Shown here: positions 4,359 to 64,000 of the stretch, piece by piece
Layout: each line of letters starts with the position of its first letter
Position numbering within the stretch: position 1 is the stretch's first letter
Origin: a virus
Lineage: Duplodnaviria; Heunggongvirae; Uroviricota; Caudoviricetes
Virus record (IMG/VR): IMGVR_UViG_3300032053_000007
Direction: 5' to 3' (one strand)
Length of the DNA: 64,000 nt
Position numbers and translations under genes: made by a program
The notes under the pieces: model-generated
Told to the model about the DNA's origin: nothing
Databases searched by the model: none
The model's input: the letters and a program-made list of their open reading frames with translations, nothing else

Positions 4359-4524
4359 GAGAAAAACTGTTGAAGAAATTCATATGATGATTGATTCTTT
4401 CAAGAAGTTGAGAGAAAAAGCTAAAGTTGACCACGAGTGGGCGATGTTCCATATTTTGAAAAGTTACATAGATTTGTTAGAATGGACTTTAGGAGAAAAA
4501 GAACTCAATGTGCCAAGTAAATGA
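4348..4524 (+). CDS. small hypothetical protein (58 aa)
   Basis: Hand-translated ATG ORF. Confidence 0.3.
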   Translation: MAYKRKTVEEIHMMIDSFKKLREKAKVDHEWAMFHILKSYIDLLEWTLGEKELNVPSK

Positions 4525-5973: not shown

Positions 5974-6021
5974 ATGATGGCAATTAAATTTGTAGAAGAA
6001 GAAAAGGTTACGTTCACATGA
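5974..6021 (+). CDS. 15-aa leader mini-ORF ending in the junction motif (MMAIKFVEEEKVTFT)
   Basis: GAAAAGGTTACGTTCACATGA; stop overlaps ATG of the next gene. Confidence 0.3.
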   Translation: MMAIKFVEEEKVTFT

Positions 6022-6167
6022 AACCAAAAAATACATGGGGATGTATAATACCACCACCGACCACTCAATGTGGTAGTAATCATAGAGCATGTATGAGATG
6101 GTTTGTACGACTTGCTCACGAATATTACAACTATTTTCATAAAATAGAGAAGGTCCAATTCGATTGA
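6018..6167 (+). CDS. small Cys-rich protein, junction-motif family (49 aa, ...KVQFD)
   Basis: ATGA/TTGA coupling on both sides. Confidence 0.4.
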   Translation: MKPKNTWGCIIPPPTTQCGSNHRACMRWFVRLAHEYYNYFHKIEKVQFD

Positions 6168-6343
6168 AATGCCTTAATTGCGGTATCGAATTCGAATGTG
6201 ATGCCAAGTTTAAAGACTGTAGAACCAAAGAATGTTTCTGTAGAAAATGTTGGAAGAAAACTCGTTCGTATATTGAGAATCCCCATGCATTTGATGACTG
6301 TTATAAAGTTCGTGTAGAGTCTGAAAAGGTGAAGTTCGATTGA
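6164..6343 (+). CDS. Zn-ribbon protein, CxxCxxxFxC...CFCxxC family (59 aa, ...KVKFD)
   Basis: TTG start in TTGA overlap; paralog of the 35184 family. Confidence 0.4.
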   Translation: MKCLNCGIEFECDAKFKDCRTKECFCRKCWKKTRSYIENPHAFDDCYKVRVESEKVKFD

Positions 6344-13494: not shown

Positions 13495-14250
13495 ATGACT
13501 AATATGGCAAAATATATGATATGTATTTGCGGTTGGGTAAGTGAAGAATATCCAGATAATTGGATGCCTATAGGTTTAGGCGGAGTATTGGACTGTCCAA
13601 TATGTCATGCTCAACAACGAAATGCTACACTTGAAATGTGTTACGGTCACGTTTCTGTAGTTACCTTAAAGGAACTCAAAATGATTAGAGAATTTGAAGC
13701 AAGAGATATTCCGTGGGAAAAAGCAATATCGTTGTATCATGAAATAAAAATATGGGAAGGAGCTAGTGTGGAAAACTTGGCTAAAACTTATGAAAAACTT
13801 GAAACCAAATCTATTCATTGTCATCTTGCGTGGTTTGGTAGCGAGTTGGTTTGCAAAGAATGTAACCCAGTTTGCTATAAGAATCACCAGATGGGCAACC
13901 CAAATCATCTCAAATGGTGTGGCGAAGAGAAGTGTCCGATAAATCCCGAAAGATTCAAGAAACCAACATTTCCAGTAACATATAACCAAGAATTAGCTGA
14001 CTATCTAAGTTCTCCGCGAGAAGGTGTTTCTCCTAGAGAAAAAAAGGAAATAAAAAAGGGATTAGACGCATTAAAGACAGAAGAGGCTAAACCATTTGTT
14101 CCTGTAATACGTTCTCGAAGTGATGAATGCTGGGAAGAAGAGGAAGAACTGGAAGCAAAAGAGGATGCTATTCGAATGTCAAAGCGCAAGTCAATTCGCA
14201 AGGGTGGAAAATATAAAGAGCGAGGCAAGGAAAAACGGCGTGAACCATGA
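13495..14250 (+). CDS. Cys/His-rich protein with charged KE-rich tail (251 aa)
   Basis: Track ORF. Confidence 0.5.
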   Translation: MTNMAKYMICICGWVSEEYPDNWMPIGLGGVLDCPICHAQQRNATLEMCYGHVSVVTLKELKMIREFEARDIPWEKAISLYHEIKIWEGASVENLAKTYEKLETKSIHCHLAWFGSELVCKECNPVCYKNHQMGNPNHLKWCGEEKCPINPERFKKPTFPVTYNQELADYLSSPREGVSPREKKEIKKGLDALKTEEAKPFVPVIRSRSDECWEEEEELEAKEDAIRMSKRKSIRKGGKYKERGKEKRREP

Positions 14251-14411
14251 GTGATTGTAATAGATGTCCATATTGTGGTTCTGTTCCTATTCATGACCCA
14301 ATAATGTGTATAAATAAGTGCCCCCATTGTGGACGAATATGGTCTGATATTTACGCTGAGAATTATCTTTCAGATTTTTGGAACCGACCAGTAAAGGTAC
14401 AATTCGACTAA
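14247..14411 (+). CDS. small Zn-ribbon protein (54 aa, ...PVKVQFD)
   Basis: ATGA overlap; CNRCPYCG...CPHCG. Confidence 0.4.
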   Translation: MSDCNRCPYCGSVPIHDPIMCINKCPHCGRIWSDIYAENYLSDFWNRPVKVQFD

Positions 14412-14454
14412 CCGTAAAGTTTATATACTTCTTTTAATACAGTATCTCTTAGAC

Positions 14455-14770
14455 ACGGGTAATTGTTCACAACTTACATAGATGGACATGCCCCATGTTA
14501 GGACCTTTCGGGTACACGATTGGCGACAACATGATTGGTCGGACAACGAACAAGACCTATAGGAGTTGGGTGAACCCGCCAGCAATGCATTGGGGGTGGC
14601 GAAACCCTGACAAAACCGTGTCATGACCGAAGACCCACGGTGGGAGCGAAACGTACACTATGATATACGGATTGGCAGAACGGCTCGCCGTGATAGCTAT
14701 GGGGTCGGGTGTACTTTACCCGTCCCCACATTCTATTTCCATAACCTTTAAATACCCGTTTTTCTTCTCA
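14455..14770 (+). ncRNA. candidate structured ncRNA (GC-rich, ORF-free, own BRE/TATA at 14413-14427, 3' hairpin plus T-tract)
   Basis: GC-rich island in an AT-rich genome; hairpin 14702-14727; T-rich 14756-14770. Confidence 0.3.
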
Positions 14771-14785
14771 TTCTAATGGATAGCA

Positions 14786-15229
14786 ATGGCTAGAATAAAG
14801 AAAAACATCAAAGGTATTCCGTTATTTTTATACGACTTTTTACAAATTTCCTTGTCAGCCTTCAAAGATTATTATCTAAAATTGAAGGTTTCTATAACAG
14901 GAGAAAATTATATTGGTCGTTATGTGGGAATCATTAGTTCATCTGAAAGACGACTTAGTTTTGAGAAATGCATAGCTGGTGGCTATACGGGGTATGTTCA
15001 GATAAAACTTTTCTCAAATCCAGATTGTGATGATTATGAAGAATGTGCAGAAGAAATTCTCAATCATGAAATACTTCATCAAGTGCTTGACAAAGTTGTG
15101 GGGCATGAAGCCAAAATGGGATTAGATAATATTCACAAGTCTTTCTATGTTCTCGATTGCAATGATAATAAGTGGCGGTTTGTGATAAAATTCATTAGCA
15201 AGAAAAAAGGGAATGTAGCCATTATCTGA
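14786..15229 (+). CDS. small HExxH motif protein
   Basis: ILNHEILHQVLDKVVGHE. Confidence 0.45.
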   Translation: MARIKKNIKGIPLFLYDFLQISLSAFKDYYLKLKVSITGENYIGRYVGIISSSERRLSFEKCIAGGYTGYVQIKLFSNPDCDDYEECAEEILNHEILHQVLDKVVGHEAKMGLDNIHKSFYVLDCNDNKWRFVIKFISKKKGNVAII

Positions 15230-15292: not shown

Positions 15293-15679
15293 GTGATTTC
15301 AATGTCATTAAAAGATAGAAAACAAAAAAGACAATATATGAAAGATTATTGGATAACTCATCCAGAGAAATATGCGGACCAAAAGAAATCCATGACAAAA
15401 TTTCATAGAAAACAAAGACAATCGTTGAGAGTTGAGATTATTCAACTGCTCGGTAGCAAGTGTTCTAATACAGATTGTCCTATTCCACCTGAAAAGATGG
15501 ATATTAGATGTTTGCAAATAGACCATATAAATGGAAACGGAAATAAAGAACGAAGTCAATTTAGCAATTATAACCAATGGTTGAAATTTATCTTACCAAA
15601 AATACAAGTTGGTTCTAAAGATTATCAACTTCTTTGTGCATATTGTAATTGGATAAAACGTTATACTGAAAAATCCTAG
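15293..15679 (+). CDS. HNH endonuclease
   Basis: CSNTDC...QIDHINGNG...N...LLCAYCNWIKR. Confidence 0.55.
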   Translation: MISMSLKDRKQKRQYMKDYWITHPEKYADQKKSMTKFHRKQRQSLRVEIIQLLGSKCSNTDCPIPPEKMDIRCLQIDHINGNGNKERSQFSNYNQWLKFILPKIQVGSKDYQLLCAYCNWIKRYTEKS

Positions 15680-20104: not shown

Positions 20105-20385
20105 CCGAAGAAATAAATCTTGAAAACCTCATTATTAAGGTGCGAAAAAGTACGCCTAAAAATCATAGACGAGCAAAAATTTGGGTTAAAAAAGGTTCGG
20201 CTAAAGTGGAGATTACTGACCAAGAAAAGTGGCTTAATGTAGAAGATATGTGTTGCGTTCTTAATCACGAGTTTCTTCATTGGATAATTACAAATATGAC
20301 AAAAACAAGACCTAAACAATATGACAAATACTTAGAGAGTCTTGGATTGTACTACCACGAAATATTAAGGGAAATATGGCAATAA
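20101..20385 (+). CDS. small HExxH motif protein
   Basis: TTG start in TTGA overlap; LNHEFLHWII. Confidence 0.45.
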   Translation: MTEEINLENLIIKVRKSTPKNHRRAKIWVKKGSAKVEITDQEKWLNVEDMCCVLNHEFLHWIITNMTKTRPKQYDKYLESLGLYYHEILREIWQ

Positions 20386-20564
20386 GGGTAGTGAATAAGA
20401 TACCATTTGAAGAGATAAAGGAACGTGCAAAATGTAAGGAATGTTTAAGGGAAGAATACTGCAAGCGTATTCCAGTAAACGACCTTATCGTTCAGGCAAT
20501 AAAGGAGAATGGCAAGTGCCCAGACTTTATTACAACAGCTTCCCCGCCACCCGCTTCCTTCTGA
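20376..20564 (+). CDS. small Cys-containing protein
   Basis: Last gene of array 1a. Confidence 0.4.
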   Translation: MAIRVVNKIPFEEIKERAKCKECLREEYCKRIPVNDLIVQAIKENGKCPDFITTASPPPASF

Positions 20565-20978
20565 GCATATACCAACTTTCTCTGGGATAGTCCCCTACCC
20601 CTAGCTCCCCTAGACGTTCAAAACTCCCTGAAAAAAAGACGTTTTCAGTTATTTTCTTTTCTCGAATCCTTAGTAAATCTAAATCGAAATGCTCAGGAAA
20701 TAGGAAATAAAAATAATACCAAAATAACAATCATAACAGAAATCACAAAGTTCGCCGACCAAAATCAAATTTTCGCCTGCGCGCCGCCTATGTGTGGGTA
20801 TGTGGTTTCAAAAAGTGTGACCGATGGTTTTTTCCTAAAGGTTTTTCTGCGTTACCCTTTTCCGTGTTTCCGTCTGGGTCACTTTCGAGGTTACGGTTAG
20901 TGTAACTTTCTGTGTCATTGAAAGTTCAACTCTTCCTTATATAATACGAGTTGCACCATATAAACCTTTCGGTAGTTA

Positions 20979-20994
20979 TTAATCAACTGATTAA
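20979..20994. promoter_or_regulatory. palindromic site TTAATCAACTGATTAA
   Basis: Perfect inverted repeat. Confidence 0.5.
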
Positions 20995-21310
20995 AAGTTT
21001 GGGGCATGGAGCCGAGGGGGTGGAAAAAAGCCATCTGACCCCCGAACTGAATCGAACTCGGCAATACGAGCAAATTTCGGGGCGATTTGGCTCCCGCCCT
21101 TTCCCACCGAGAAAATTTCCCATAGGGTGAGTTTCGAACTGAGTCGAATTTCCGAAAACGAGCAAATTTCGAGGCAGATAATTTTTACAGGTCTCGCAAA
21201 TGACCATCACTTTTTTGCTGGTTGGGGATGTTTGTATGGAGAGAATGGCTTTCGAAATTTTTCGAAGTGCCAAAAAAGCTCCCAACCCTGCTGGTCATGG
21301 AAACCGAATG

Positions 21311-21326
21311 TTTAATCAACTGATTA
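21311..21326. promoter_or_regulatory. palindromic site TTAATCAACTGATTAA
   Basis: Perfect inverted repeat. Confidence 0.5.
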
Positions 21327-21392
21327 AAATAGTTCCTTTTATGACCTTCGGCATGGAGAAGTCCATGCAAACCAGCGATACTCATAGGGTTT

Positions 21393-21430
21393 TGAGCATG
21401 GGAGTTCTTACTAAACCTTTATATAGGGGA
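21393..21430 (+). promoter_or_regulatory. conserved promoter module driving array 1b
   Basis: TTGAGCATGGGAGTTCTTACTAAACC-TTTATATA-GGGG. Confidence 0.5.
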
Positions 21431-21459
21431 AAGCTATATCTCTAGGTAGTGACCGATTA

Positions 21460-25013: not shown

Positions 25014-25046
25014 GCATGGTTCTTCTACCACAACCTTTATATAGTA
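25011..25046 (+). promoter_or_regulatory. terminator/promoter module after array 1
   Basis: TGAGCATGGTTCTTCTACCACAACC-TTTATATA. Confidence 0.45.
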
Positions 25047-52784: not shown

Positions 52785-52820
52785 GAGCATGGACTTTTTC
52801 CCGAAACATTTATATACTTG
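52785..52820 (+). promoter_or_regulatory. conserved promoter module with no ORF downstream
   Basis: CGAGCATGGACTTTTTCCCGAAACA-TTTATATA. Confidence 0.5.
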
Positions 52821-52839
52821 ATTGACATCTGTAATAACA

Positions 52840-53090
52840 TGACGCACTCGCGTCTAACTAAAGGGCGCGTAAGACCGAAGGACGCACAACGTCCAAAAAC
52901 TTACCGACCCTTCAAAGTCGCTAGGGTTACGTTCGAAATAAGCGACAAGAACGGAACCGCACAAGACCGAAGGTTTGTCTCGCGGTAAAACGGGGCATTC
53001 CACCAACTTGTGCTTCAACTGACAAAAAAACCACAAACCACGTCCGAAAACGGGGCATGGCACACTCTCCATGCCCCCTCTCTCCTTTTT
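52840..53090 (+). ncRNA. candidate ncRNA A (GC-rich, ORF-poor, promoter-to-terminator unit)
   Basis: Internal repeats AAGACCGAAGG ×2 and AAAACGGGGCAT ×2; ends in a 9-bp hairpin plus T-tract. Confidence 0.35.
53052..53090 (+). terminator. intrinsic-terminator-like hairpin GGGGCATGG-N8-CCATGCCCC followed by a T-rich tract
   Basis: Perfect 9-bp stem, then CTCTCTCCTTTTT. Confidence 0.5.
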
Positions 53091-53128
53091 AAGTATGGTC
53101 TTTCTATGACAAGGTTTATATAGGACGC
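53091..53128 (+). promoter_or_regulatory. conserved promoter module (second ncRNA unit)
   Basis: AGTATGGTCTTTCTATGACAAGG-TTTATATA-GGACGCAGACATATTACT. Confidence 0.5.
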
Positions 53129-53149
53129 AGACATATTACTTTTGGGTTC

Positions 53150-53265
53150 GTGCGGAACACTCTCAGATAGTCGGCGAGTTAATGAGCCATGAAAAACCGC
53201 TAGGGTATGGGAGTTAGGCGTGGGTAATGGCACTCACGGTGTATCAGCCACACGAACTCACTAAT
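53150..53265 (+). ncRNA. candidate short ncRNA B
   Basis: Promoter followed by a GC-rich ORF-free segment ending at the next promoter module. Confidence 0.25.
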
Positions 53266-53300
53266 TGAATATGGTCTTTCTTAGCGAAAGTTTATATAGT
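53266..53300 (+). promoter_or_regulatory. conserved promoter module (third unit)
   Basis: TTGAATATGGTCTTTCTTAGCGAAAG-TTTATATA. Confidence 0.5.
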
Positions 53301-53324
53301 TGGGTGTGTATTATACTCTTCCGC

Positions 53325-53440
53325 ACGTTGAAAAATCCTTATGCGGTGCGATACGACATAGGGCAAATTTCAACCTCTACATTAAATAAAACTAGGGTCA
53401 CGGCGAAACGCACTAGCCAAGACCCCCCTAAAATTTTGAG
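53325..53440 (+). ncRNA. candidate short ncRNA C
   Basis: As for unit B; contains GGTCACGGCGAAACGCACTAGCC. Confidence 0.25.
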
Positions 53441-53475
53441 CACGTTCTTTCTTAGCAAACCTTTATATAGGACGG
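53436..53475 (+). promoter_or_regulatory. conserved promoter module
   Basis: TTTTGAGCACGTTCTTTCTTAGCAAACC-TTTATATA-GGACG. Confidence 0.5.
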
Positions 53476-55068: not shown

Positions 55069-55336
55069 TTTGACATACTACTCTATCAAGGGCGAAGGGA
55101 TATTGTTCCATTTTTTCACCGTCCTTTCTCGCGCTTTCCCTTCGCCCGTTCTACTCATTCCTTCTAACCTCTCTAACCCTCTACAAACTTAGACGATTTC
55201 ACTAACACTTTTTGTTAAAGACCTCAGAACCCCCGACCCAGAGAGCCTTTACACTTTTTGATTTCACCACGTCAACCGAAACTGACCCAAGTTCTGCCCA
55301 AGCCGTCTTGAGCCTCTCTCACGAAACCCAGATTTT

Positions 55337-55352
55337 TAATCAACTGATTAAC
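55337..55352. promoter_or_regulatory. palindromic site TTAATCAACTGATTAA
   Basis: Perfect inverted repeat. Confidence 0.5.
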
Positions 55353-55672
55353 GAATCGTAGCTCGTAACGAGGCTGTGCACCCTTTACCCCGACCTCTAA
55401 CCATATAACACAAATTGTTAAGCAAATTCCCGAACCCCAGAGAACCCACGTCCGACCCCTAACCCAGACCCTCTAACGACCTCTAATCACTAACCCCCCC
55501 AAGAGAGCCATATACCCCCAAAAGTGGAGTCCATGCTTAAAAGAAATGCTCGATAAAAGATACTGATGACCTTTACATACGTAAAGGAAAGGGTTGTCAT
55601 ACGTAAAGGGTCTATGGAGTGGAATGTTGGCATACGACAACGGCGTGATTGACATAGTGCTGTAGCTCTATT

Positions 55673-59170: not shown

Positions 59171-60020
59171 CCCCCCTACCCCCTTTTTGTTTTTTTGGTG
59201 ATAATCATGGAACAAAAAAGACGAATTCGGACACAACCGAAATTAAAAGGAAATCTCGGCAAACTGTTTAATAAGCGATTTTTTGAACTGCTCGAACAGA
59301 ACCGATAAAACTCCCTCTTTTTTTGACTTGCAAACTTAGCGGAAAAACAAATTTTAACTTAATATATACCTATGTGCGTTACACCCCAGACAGTTACCCC
59401 CAGAAGTTCAACTTTCGGTTGACCACAACCTTTATATAGGTCGCCATACCGAAACGTTTATATACTACCCTATACCGAAACCCTTATATACTACCTATTT
59501 GACTTCATAGTTCCTGTTCTAACCATACAACACCGTCACTTATAAACCTTCCTATTTAACTGTTCAACAATAATACAGTTAGTACATTGTGTTCGATTCA
59601 TCACAACGATGAGAGCGAAAATTTCGTTCGAGAAAATATACATGAAAACACCATAGTACGAGTAACCACTTCGAAAACACACATATGGGGCAATAAAAAG
59701 ACCATTGTGGTGAATCGTAGCCAATTTCGAAGCATGGGAAAAGCATGGTAAATTCTCGAATCGTGACTTCGATTCACCACGCATAGGAACAAAAGTTCAC
59801 CGTGAGTTCAACTGTGGGTGACATTCAATTCAAGTGATGCGTGTCCATGTAATATACGCTTAACGCGAGGCTCTGGTTATGAACGTGGGCACGGGACTAT
59901 TTAAACGTTTGCTTTTAACTGTTTAACGTGACTACACATGACCATATAAACTGTATATTTGACCTACACTTTAAAGCCAACCTTTAAATACTACGTTCGA
60001 CACGTTACCTAATGGTGAAC
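59171..60020. repeat. ORF-free repeat island
   Basis: CCCCCTACCCCC, ACCTATGTGCGTTACAC, AGTTCAACTTTCGGTTGACC, tandem TATA-like boxes 59425-59500, CCATGTAATATACGCTTAACGCGA. Confidence 0.45.
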
Positions 60021-63389: not shown

Positions 63390-64000
63390 ACAGCACGGGC
63401 TAATTGCCCGTGTTCCTAGTGATTAGCCTCTAGGTAGAATATAGCTAACTGATGAACCTTATAGGCTATGGTTTATAGGGTCAAGGTTGTTGCACTACAC
63501 TTGCAAGCTAGAGGCTATCACACAATAATACTTTTAGTACAACTAATTAGTTACACTTTTAGTTATACCAAATCCTTATATACTAGCCTGTTTCACTTGT
63601 GCACAACACTACTATATAAACCTTTCACAACCCTTATATACTAGAGCCTCACTCACGAGCACAGCACTACTATATAAGGCTTACGCAACCCTTATATACT
63701 ACACCCTACCCCCTACCCCTATTTAAACTTATCGCAACGCTTATATACTAGACCCGCCCCTCTACCCCCTTATAAAGCTATCGGACAATTCTCAGTTGCA
63801 CTTTCGGTTGCACCCACAAGAGCACTAACAATTATCACAAAAAGTACAACTTTCAGTTACATCAACAAGTCCCCCGCCAGTTCCACCCACAGGCGAATCA
63901 GAGGTAATATAGTCCCCCCCTAAACACAGGAATTCGATTTTGGTGGATGGGACTAAGCTGGGTAAATTGCCCTATGTTTCAACTGGGTCATGATGTTTCA
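63390..64000. repeat. ORF-free repeat island at the window end (tandem CCTTATATACTA boxes)
   Basis: At least 6 TATA-like boxes 63560-63760, CCCTACCCCCTACCCC, GTTGCACTTTCGGTTGCAC. Confidence 0.5.

Follow-up and report, generated by a model that had tools for sequence, protein, structure and literature searches.

We have analysed a 64-kb stretch of virus DNA (IMG/VR record IMGVR_UViG_3300032053_000007; the whole stretch of 64,000 nucleotides is referred to below as the window), and find that positions 14412–14738 form a self-contained accessory cassette on the + strand, in which a promoter composed of a B recognition element (BRE) and TATA box is followed by what is very likely an independent gene for a structured non-coding RNA (ncRNA). 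An earlier note made from the letters of this DNA had suggested an independently promoted, structured + strand ncRNA of about 300 nt, and this is now borne out by covariation in six helices, by G–U pairs which work on the + strand, by the lack of codon periodicity, and by a predicted transcription start which falls on the first helix of the fold (P1). The RNA, which a small set of uncultured archaeal viruses appears to carry, matches no described RNA family, and we regard it as a new family within the known kind of virus-encoded structured ncRNAs.

Organisation and fold of the RNA cassette

The features of the cassette are listed here, together with two elements immediately 3' of it which lie outside the RNA (variants of the element found on other contigs, and relatives which lack it, are referred to by locus numbers such as L008).

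14412–14427, + strand: promoter with a BRE-like CCGTAAAG and TATA box TTTATATA (TATA at 14420–14427), which fits the window-wide motif and is kept in all variants
14450–14452, + strand: predicted transcription start, from the TATA-to-start-codon spacing, which is also the first base of P1
14451–14738, + strand: RNA body of about 288 nt and 51% GC, from the match to covariance model R1 (14449–14738, 353.7 bits), the consensus structure and covariation
14452–14456, + strand: 5' strand of P1, GACAC (may extend to 14458), pairing with 14618–14622, with one pair that alternates between A–U, G–C and G–U
14457–14493, + strand: P2 hairpin, GGGUA..UGUUCA / UGGACA UGCCC, with a 13-nt apical loop (4 pairs changed on both sides)
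14494–14533, + strand: P4/P5 hairpin with a conserved GUACA-containing loop (7 pairs changed on both sides, mostly from L023)
14550–14568, + strand: junction segment ACAAGACCUAUAGGAGUUG, containing the palindrome CCUAUAGG and identical in all 7 full-length variants
14565–14611, + strand: P9/P10 hairpin with an A[UGCA]U tetraloop at its apex, 14585–14590 (3 pairs changed on both sides)
14607–14657, + strand: nearly invariant 51-nt core, spanning the 3' strand of P1, the unpaired AUGACCGAAGACC and the 5' strand of helix 11
14618–14622, + strand: 3' strand of P1, GUGUC (may extend from 14616), closing a 5' domain of about 170 nt
14623–14635, + strand: unpaired junction AUGACCGAAGACC, invariant and single-stranded, inside the 51-nt core
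14636–14692, + strand: helix 11, CACGGUGGG..CG / CG.CUCGCCGUG (strands 14636–48 and 14681–92), enclosing 14649–14680 which varies in length and sequence
14701–14727, + strand: GC-rich terminal hairpin GGGGUCGGGU-GUACUUU-ACCCGUCCCC, which pairs in every variant and has a loop sequence that is free to vary
14728–14738, + strand: 3' tail ACAUUCUAUUU, the probable 3' end region, with a short and weakly conserved U-run just before the next promoter
14739–14754, + strand, outside the RNA: promoter CCATAACC-TTTAAATA of the 147-aa gene, the same in the RNA-less L012 and L013
14756–14770, + strand, outside the RNA: T-rich spacer of the 147-aa gene after its TATA box (14747–14754), the same in the RNA-less L012 and L013

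The cassette begins directly after an open reading frame (ORF) for a 54-aa Zn-ribbon protein which ends at 14411, and the BRE/TATA sequence that the earlier note had placed after this gene is present. It fits a very regular archaeal-type promoter motif, of which there are about 35 copies on the + strand across the window (AAAGNTTATATA, allowing up to one mismatch, is found 20 times against 3.2 expected, and none of 100 shuffles reach 20). Start codons in the window are found 39–44 nt past the TATA box, counting from its first T. This would place the transcription start at about +30 and therefore at 14450–14452 for the TATA box at 14420, and this is where conservation among the variants begins. 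Together with the location of nearly all window ORFs on the + strand and the few matches to Pfam and PHROGs (an RNA ligase, KaiC-like and MoxR-like ATPases, an SPFH protein, a glycosyltransferase and a terminase-like ATPase fragment), the promoter motif makes the window look like a large uncultured archaeal virus or virus-like element.

The RNA body also stands out by composition, as had been noted earlier: the 200-nt GC content of the window has a mean of 38% and a standard deviation (sd) of 4%, and 14509–14708 is the maximum at 55% (about +4.3 sd). At the other end, the terminal stem recognised in the earlier note is real and its pairing is kept in every variant, and the RNA would end shortly after it, near 14735–14738. 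The T-tract at 14756–14770 which had been read as the end of the RNA does exist, but as it is present in the RNA-less L013 it is not part of the RNA element and belongs to the downstream promoter region instead; L009, L017 and L020 do not keep its T5 run.

The fold was derived from a plain MAFFT alignment of five sequences, in which RNAalifold found 73 pairs, eight of them with compensatory double changes. A covariance model (R1) was built from this alignment and structure, and was then used to align eight sequences, in which 95.3% of the pair cells are canonical and 17 of the 73 pairs are changed on both sides. This compares with 6.8±1.8 pairs in column shuffles (0/500 reach 17) and with only 1–4 pairs in six controls in which the register was slid, and we consider this helix-level contrast with the slid registers to be the meaningful test of the fold. 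Base pairing is kept by compensatory substitutions beyond these controls, which is what is generally looked for in a structured ncRNA. In a seven-sequence alignment (A7) there are 43 G–U cells compared with six A–C cells, and this excess of wobble pairs indicates that the fold works on the + strand only; in the same alignment 96% of the pair cells are paired on the + strand compared with 88% on the − strand, a comparison which is partly circular as the structure itself was predicted on the + strand.

In the overall fold, P1 would close a multi-branch 5' domain that contains P2, P4/P5, the invariant junction and P9/P10, followed by the unpaired AUGACCGAAGACC, helix 11 and the terminal hairpin, with a variable linker between the last two. 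The AUGCAU apex of P9/P10 is invariant family-wide, including in the distant homolog L026, and the 22-mer GACCGAAGACCCACGGTGGGAG (14625–14646) is identical in all variants. Helix 11 shows only wobble changes within the close family (U–A to U–G in three variants and C–G to U–G in one) and a compensatory U–A to A–U change in L026. In L005, L008, L009, L017, L020 and L023 the terminal hairpin shows compensatory and wobble changes that preserve its pairing; it has no internal pocket and is followed by ACA (AAA in L008, L017, L020 and L023).

There is no ORF longer than 67 aa on either strand of the region and none that is conserved in relatives, in agreement with the earlier note, and the conserved coding frame in homologs which had been raised as an alternative was not found. 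The variable columns in the RNA are distributed over the three positions as 37/45/41 (p = 0.68), and so show no codon periodicity, compared with 164/27/19 in the adjacent 147-aa gene (p = 6e-42) where there is a third-position excess. The open frames that do occur vary between the variants, which differ by indels of 1–2 nt that shift the frame, and the ATG of a 42-aa ORF in the window is deleted in L008 and L009. We conclude that the RNA is not translated, and that base pairing and the sequences of the junctions and loops are under selection.

Variants, distribution and accessory status

Variants were found by exact-protein look-ups of the flanking genes, through homologs of the proteins encoded upstream and of the 147-aa protein encoded downstream, and by a metagenome scan with the 22-mer. 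Among the matches listed, the family comprises seven full-length variants and one partial variant (L005, L008, L009, L016, L017, L020 and L023) plus the distant L026, with members sharing one genomic position, and several contigs from independent assemblies show 100% identity to the window throughout the region. Similarity to the window element is 99% for L016 and L019, 87% for L008, 86% for L020 and L021, 83% for L017, and 81% for L009, L010 and L015; within the close set L023 has diverged most, scoring 229 bits with R1. The RNA diverges faster than the neighbouring gene, as the difference between L023 and the window amounts to 27.6% of positions in the RNA and 8.1% in the 147-aa gene.

The variants also exchange parts of the element. 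Over 2005 nt, L005 differs from the window by 14 substitutions and an indel of 8 nt, of which 11 substitutions and the indel are within 14668–14756; nine substitutions and the indel are concentrated within 27 nt around the terminal hairpin, with three differences in the remaining ~1840 nt (for this dense patch, L005:1–145 was aligned to window positions 14602–14738). As the patch resembles the L008 and L017 alleles, it is best seen as a short recombination tract between co-circulating viruses. L020 is likewise a mosaic, in which the 5' part is of the window type, P9/P10 of the L009 type and the hairpin of the L008 type. The stems therefore drift and recombine freely between co-circulating viruses.

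The most distant homolog, L026 (identical to L027; L026 and L005 come from the same ENA assembly), has a 372-nt ORF-free gap after its gene for the basic-tailed protein described below, with its own TATA box at 4426–33 and a predicted transcription start on AGACAC at 4456. R1 scores it at 11.9 bits only, and this with the filters off. It has the motifs AGACAC, TAATT, GGCGA, ATGCAT, CCCACGG and CCGTG in the same order as the window RNA, and when the 5' domain is folded alone, P1 (GACACAAA/UUUGUGUU) closes three hairpins, one of which has the A[UGCA]U apex. When the 3' part is folded alone, helix 11 is formed by CACGGAGAG/UUCUCCGUG. The L026 fold gives compensatory support for helix 11 and for a P1 of 7–8 bp, and the existence of this homolog means that the RNA family is broader than our searches sampled.

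There is one RNA copy per genome (a covariance model search of the window and all loci found no paralogue), and BLAST found no repeat, second copy or template of a diversity-generating retroelement for the element in the window. No copy was found in IMG/VR by protein-anchored searches or by exact or degenerate DNA scans, where the sole DNA-scan match, L028, is a chance match in a coding region without promoter or fold. None was found either in the one-per-species GTDB genomes, where the Clostridiaceae contig L018 has a chance 19-mer, or by BLAST in GenBank phage records or PLSDB plasmids. The metagenome scan gave three true loci among the matches listed, plus L014, a GC-rich contig in which positions 811–839 (− strand) share 27/29 nt with the invariant core inside a 189-aa ORF, where they code for TEDPRWE; as the similarity stops at 29 nt in both DNA and protein, we judge it to be probably due to chance. 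A literature search found nothing relevant to the element.

In L012, L013, L022 and L024/25 there is no cassette, and the genes that flank it elsewhere are immediate neighbours with a single promoter; in L012 and L013 the cassette promoter is missing along with the RNA. L012 has a Zn-ribbon homolog followed by 67 nt and then the single promoter of a 145-aa gene, and in L013 the gene for a lysine/arginine (K/R)-rich protein is directly before this same promoter. The gene 3' of the RNA varies as well, being the 147-aa gene in the window, a 311-aa gene in L026, and in L008 an AAA-ATPase gene, which has a promoter of its own and is located between the RNA and the 147-aa gene. The RNA cassette is accessory and is dispensable in close relatives.

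The K/R-rich protein is encoded at 13495–14250 in the window and has no Pfam match. Members of its family (L009, L012, L013, L017, L023 and L026) have a Zn-ribbon-like N-terminus, which is missing in L026, and a universally conserved and very basic C-terminal tail, EDKxRKxKxKSIRxxGKYKxRGKEKRREP. It is 3' of the gene with this ...KSIRxxGKYKxRGKEKRREP tail that gene content shifts, making the site a hot-spot of gene-content variation in which the RNA cassette is included. A homolog of Lar_restr_allev (restriction alleviation) is encoded about 2 kb downstream, and small Zn-finger genes are found nearby. We note that the 147-aa protein (14786–15229) has a HExxH motif (NHEILHQ...GHE) and no Pfam match, and that a 128-aa ORF (15293–15679) has an HNH-like Cys/His arrangement by eye.

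Comparison with known RNAs and alternative explanations

We searched the whole window with the 4227 models of Rfam 15, taking a score at or above the gathering threshold of a family as membership, and obtained no matches. At E ≤ 10, the region 14300–14900 gave only chance-level matches to icd-II, Phe_leader and snoZ5 (15–18 bits compared with thresholds of 55–99), located in the flanks or tail, and cmscan of L026, L023 and L009 gave no consistent family at E ≤ 10. ARAGORN found no tRNA or tmRNA genes in the whole window and there was no tRNA-clan Rfam match, so the impression that no tRNA cloverleaf is present was correct.

Of the identities offered earlier (an RNA like that of the signal recognition particle (SRP) or RNase P, a ribozyme, or a novel viral small RNA), only the last survives for the window element and the three variants scanned. 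Archaeal SRP RNA resembles the element in being an independent RNA gene of about 300 nt which is GC-rich in an AT-rich genome, as does RNase P RNA. No SRP-clan match was found at E ≤ 10 in these four divergent sequences, however, and the consensus fold has a multi-branch 5' domain and two 3' hairpins and not one long helix 5. There was also no match to the models for RNase P RNA (archaeal types A, M and T) at E ≤ 10 in the four, and inspection by eye showed none of the conserved motifs of either RNA, among them CR-I and CR-V of RNase P. It should be noted that an accessory RNA gene is an ill fit to an essential housekeeping RNA such as these. No family model for a known ribozyme or riboswitch matched at E ≤ 10, and a CUGACAA sequence which by eye resembles the hammerhead CUGAUGA box is without its G8. 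For archaeal H/ACA or C/D guide RNAs, no canonical kink-turn was seen by eye and no snoRNA-clan match was found in the RNA body. Further checks by eye for a kink-turn, hammerhead core, H/ACA pocket, bulge-helix-bulge motif, small ORF led by a Shine–Dalgarno (SD) sequence, or SD mimic found none that is conserved across the variants.

Closer parallels are provided by other virus-borne RNAs. GOLLD, ROOL and similar large structured phage-associated RNAs are known from comparative genomics and have no known function, and the RNA described here is like them in being virus-borne, stand-alone and GC-rich relative to the genome, with a covariation-backed multi-helix fold, invariant junctions and loops, and no assigned function. 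It differs in being about 290 nt (GOLLD and ROOL are bacterial or phage RNAs of about 500–800 nt), in its archaeal BRE/TATA promoter, and in having no Rfam 15 match. It also shares with the phi29-type packaging RNA (pRNA), whose function relies on specific loops, the character of a virus-encoded ncRNA with its own promoter and a structure that is conserved while the sequence drifts. Unlike the pRNA, it is dispensable in relatives, has no recognisable packaging genes adjoining it and no sequence or model match, and is of a different size and architecture. A further parallel is with viral decoy or scaffold ncRNAs, such as adenovirus VA RNA, herpesvirus EBER and HSUR, and phage RNA anti-CRISPRs, which are abundant viral RNAs that bind or titrate a host factor, are encoded among accessory host-interaction genes and evolve fast. 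Here the likeness is functional only and restricted to the proposed mode of action, without homology. The likeness to phage-associated RNAs, decoy RNAs and pRNA is one of lifestyle, not of homology.

On this basis we suggest, tentatively, that the RNA might act in trans as a protein-binding scaffold or decoy, in which the invariant junctions and loops would be presented to some factor of the host or virus, with the terminal hairpin protecting or stabilising the 3' end. The setting would be a block of small, early-type accessory genes (encoding the Zn-ribbon proteins, the HNH-like protein and the Lar-type anti-restriction homolog). Such a mechanism is a possibility to which we give rather less weight than to the ncRNA gene itself, and the explanation as a whole, gene and mechanism together, is the one we favour, with reservation.

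A number of points weigh against this explanation. The cassette promoter, start and 3' end are predictions, and as no strong oligo-T terminator was found after the terminal hairpin, read-through into the downstream gene is possible. Of the two folding checks that had been proposed earlier, the prediction from a single sequence gives no support, as its minimum free energy (MFE) is no more stable than that of dinucleotide shuffles (z = −0.69 on the + strand and 0.03 on the − strand), and it is the covariance with homologs that supports the fold; judged on thermodynamics alone, the element would have been discarded in error. The number of sequences is small, about eight from roughly six lineages, and these are partly mosaic, so that there are few events and pairwise covariation alone is noisy. 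A free search of the eight sequences lets 322 column pairs 'covary' under the loosest criterion and was too noisy to find extra covarying pairs or pseudoknots, and the final count was made on an alignment that had itself been fitted to the model. Finally, the upstream K/R-rich family occurs with and without the RNA, and we identified no binding partner and found no obligate protein partner.

We have also considered other explanations for the cassette. An antisense regulator, in which an invariant unpaired segment (AUGACCGAAGACC or ACAAGACCUAUAGGAGUUG) pairs with an mRNA of the host or virus or with a further viral ncRNA, would account for the long invariant single-stranded segments and fits with the over-representation of the 8-mer GACCGAAG (four copies in the window compared with 1.3 expected, three of them in ORF-free promoter-driven units). 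We regard it as unlikely, however, as BLAST against both window strands found only chance 11–18-mers complementary to the RNA, most of them in the promoter or tail parts, and a multi-helix RNA of about 290 nt is far bigger than a seed-presenting small RNA needs to be. The clustering of invariant nucleotides in junctions and loops while the stems covary is also seen in ribozymes and ornate phage RNAs, and could reflect a new ribozyme, or an RNA that self-assembles into dimers or oligomers via the palindromic A[UGCA]U loop, which is kept even in the distant L026, and CCUAUAGG. This we consider improbable: none of the known ribozyme models gives a match at E ≤ 10, the presence of one palindrome of 8 nt and one of 10 nt within 290 nt is near chance (we estimate about 1.1 and 0.3, respectively), and a 4-nt loop makes a poor kissing partner.

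The order of promoter, structured domain, GC-rich hairpin with U-rich tail, and gene would also suit a cis-acting element, that is, a long structured 5' leader like those of riboswitches or attenuators which controls read-through into the downstream gene, and the lack of a strong terminator is in keeping with this. There is little chance of it being correct, as the downstream gene has its own promoter, identical in the RNA-less relatives, and the gene that follows the RNA is not the same in all variants. A DNA-level element (a replication origin, packaging site or set of protein-binding palindromes) could explain a GC-rich island with the invariant palindromes CCTATAGG and CAATGCATTG but is very improbable, because close relatives do without the island, a promoter precedes it at the right spacing, and many of its variable pairs go through G–U, which is workable only as RNA on one strand. 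A protein-coding gene or decayed pseudogene is scarcely credible despite open frames of 40–128 codons in individual variants and the match to the real ORF in L014, since no frame is conserved across the small indels, the flanking gene has the third-position bias that the RNA lacks, and the L014 likeness is so short.

Other candidate RNA units in the window and significance of the RNA

Outside the cassette, the window holds further units which are driven by a promoter and lack a recognisable ORF:

~52838–53095: body of an ORF-free, promoter-driven and GC-rich unit with its TATA box at 52809 (51.5% GC; MFE z = −4.06, with 0/200 shuffles as stable)
53145–53275: TATA-driven unit whose ends pair (GGGUUCGUG/CACGAACUC), with a weaker fold (z = −1.3)
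53321–53440: TATA-driven ORF-free unit

The first of these ends in a hairpin, GGGGCAUGG...CCAUGCCCC, followed by U5 (T5 in the DNA), contains AAGACCGAAGG and AAAACGGGGCAU twice each as well as two copies of the 8-mer GACCGAAG, and has no Rfam match. The other two are consecutive within 53115–53460, where no ORF of at least 40 aa is found at a plausible distance past the TATA box and each unit is followed by the next promoter. The four copies of GACCGAAG are at 14625, 20103, 52873 and 52965, a number which none of 100 shuffles reach; of the three in ORF-free, promoter-driven GC-rich units, one is in the invariant junction of the 14412–14738 RNA. The 8-mer may be a shared binding motif, and the virus lineage may encode a set of ncRNAs.

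More speculatively, and we think this unlikely, the RNA could represent the first of a new class of ornate RNA specific to archaeal viruses, with an activity of its own (catalysis, ligand binding, or self-assembly via A[UGCA]U and CCUAUAGG). It would then be one of at least three to four promoter-driven ncRNA genes in this virus (the others being at 52.8–53.5 kb), perhaps linked by GACCGAAG and serving host takeover or anti-defence.

Several other observations were made. In L026, positions 6019–6200 have a promoter, GGCAAACGTTTAAATA, followed by ORF-free GC-rich hairpins (UUGGCUAAG...CUAAGCCAAG and GGUGGGAGU...ACUCCCACC), and this is a candidate small ncRNA. Within the window, strong TATA motifs are found at 25036, 33328, 54474, 56020, 59431 and 59457 with no ORF of at least 40 aa starting within about 70 nt downstream. 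A GC island at 21000–21199 (50.5% GC) lies inside 20380–21440, which has no + strand ORF of at least 90 aa and shows 72–77% identity in L017, and 55200–55500 has 48% GC and a strongly negative GC skew. Tandem repeats at 59378–59495 and 63574–63783 have units which include the promoter core (CCTTATATAC), forming arrays of promoter-like sites near the window end that may mark a genome terminus or regulatory region. Borg-like tandem repeats were not found in the window, nor was any bacterial-type intrinsic terminator or sigma-70 promoter, and virus typing using Pfam, PHROGs and tblastn of the large proteins was uninformative beyond generic ATPases, RNA ligase and glycosyltransferase.

To our knowledge, structured ncRNAs of more than 200 nt without a known function are rare, and almost none have been described from archaeal viruses. 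The one described here has a clear gene structure, with a promoter, predicted 5' end and terminal hairpin, and a fold that is backed by covariation. That about 50 nt of its core are invariant points to a specific molecular interaction, and the pattern of presence and absence marks the RNA as an accessory factor, probably one involved in host interaction. It provides a concrete and testable new RNA family for which a covariance model, R1, already exists, and with it the role of ncRNA in the conflict between archaeal viruses and their hosts becomes approachable in a lineage that seems to invest in several ncRNA genes.

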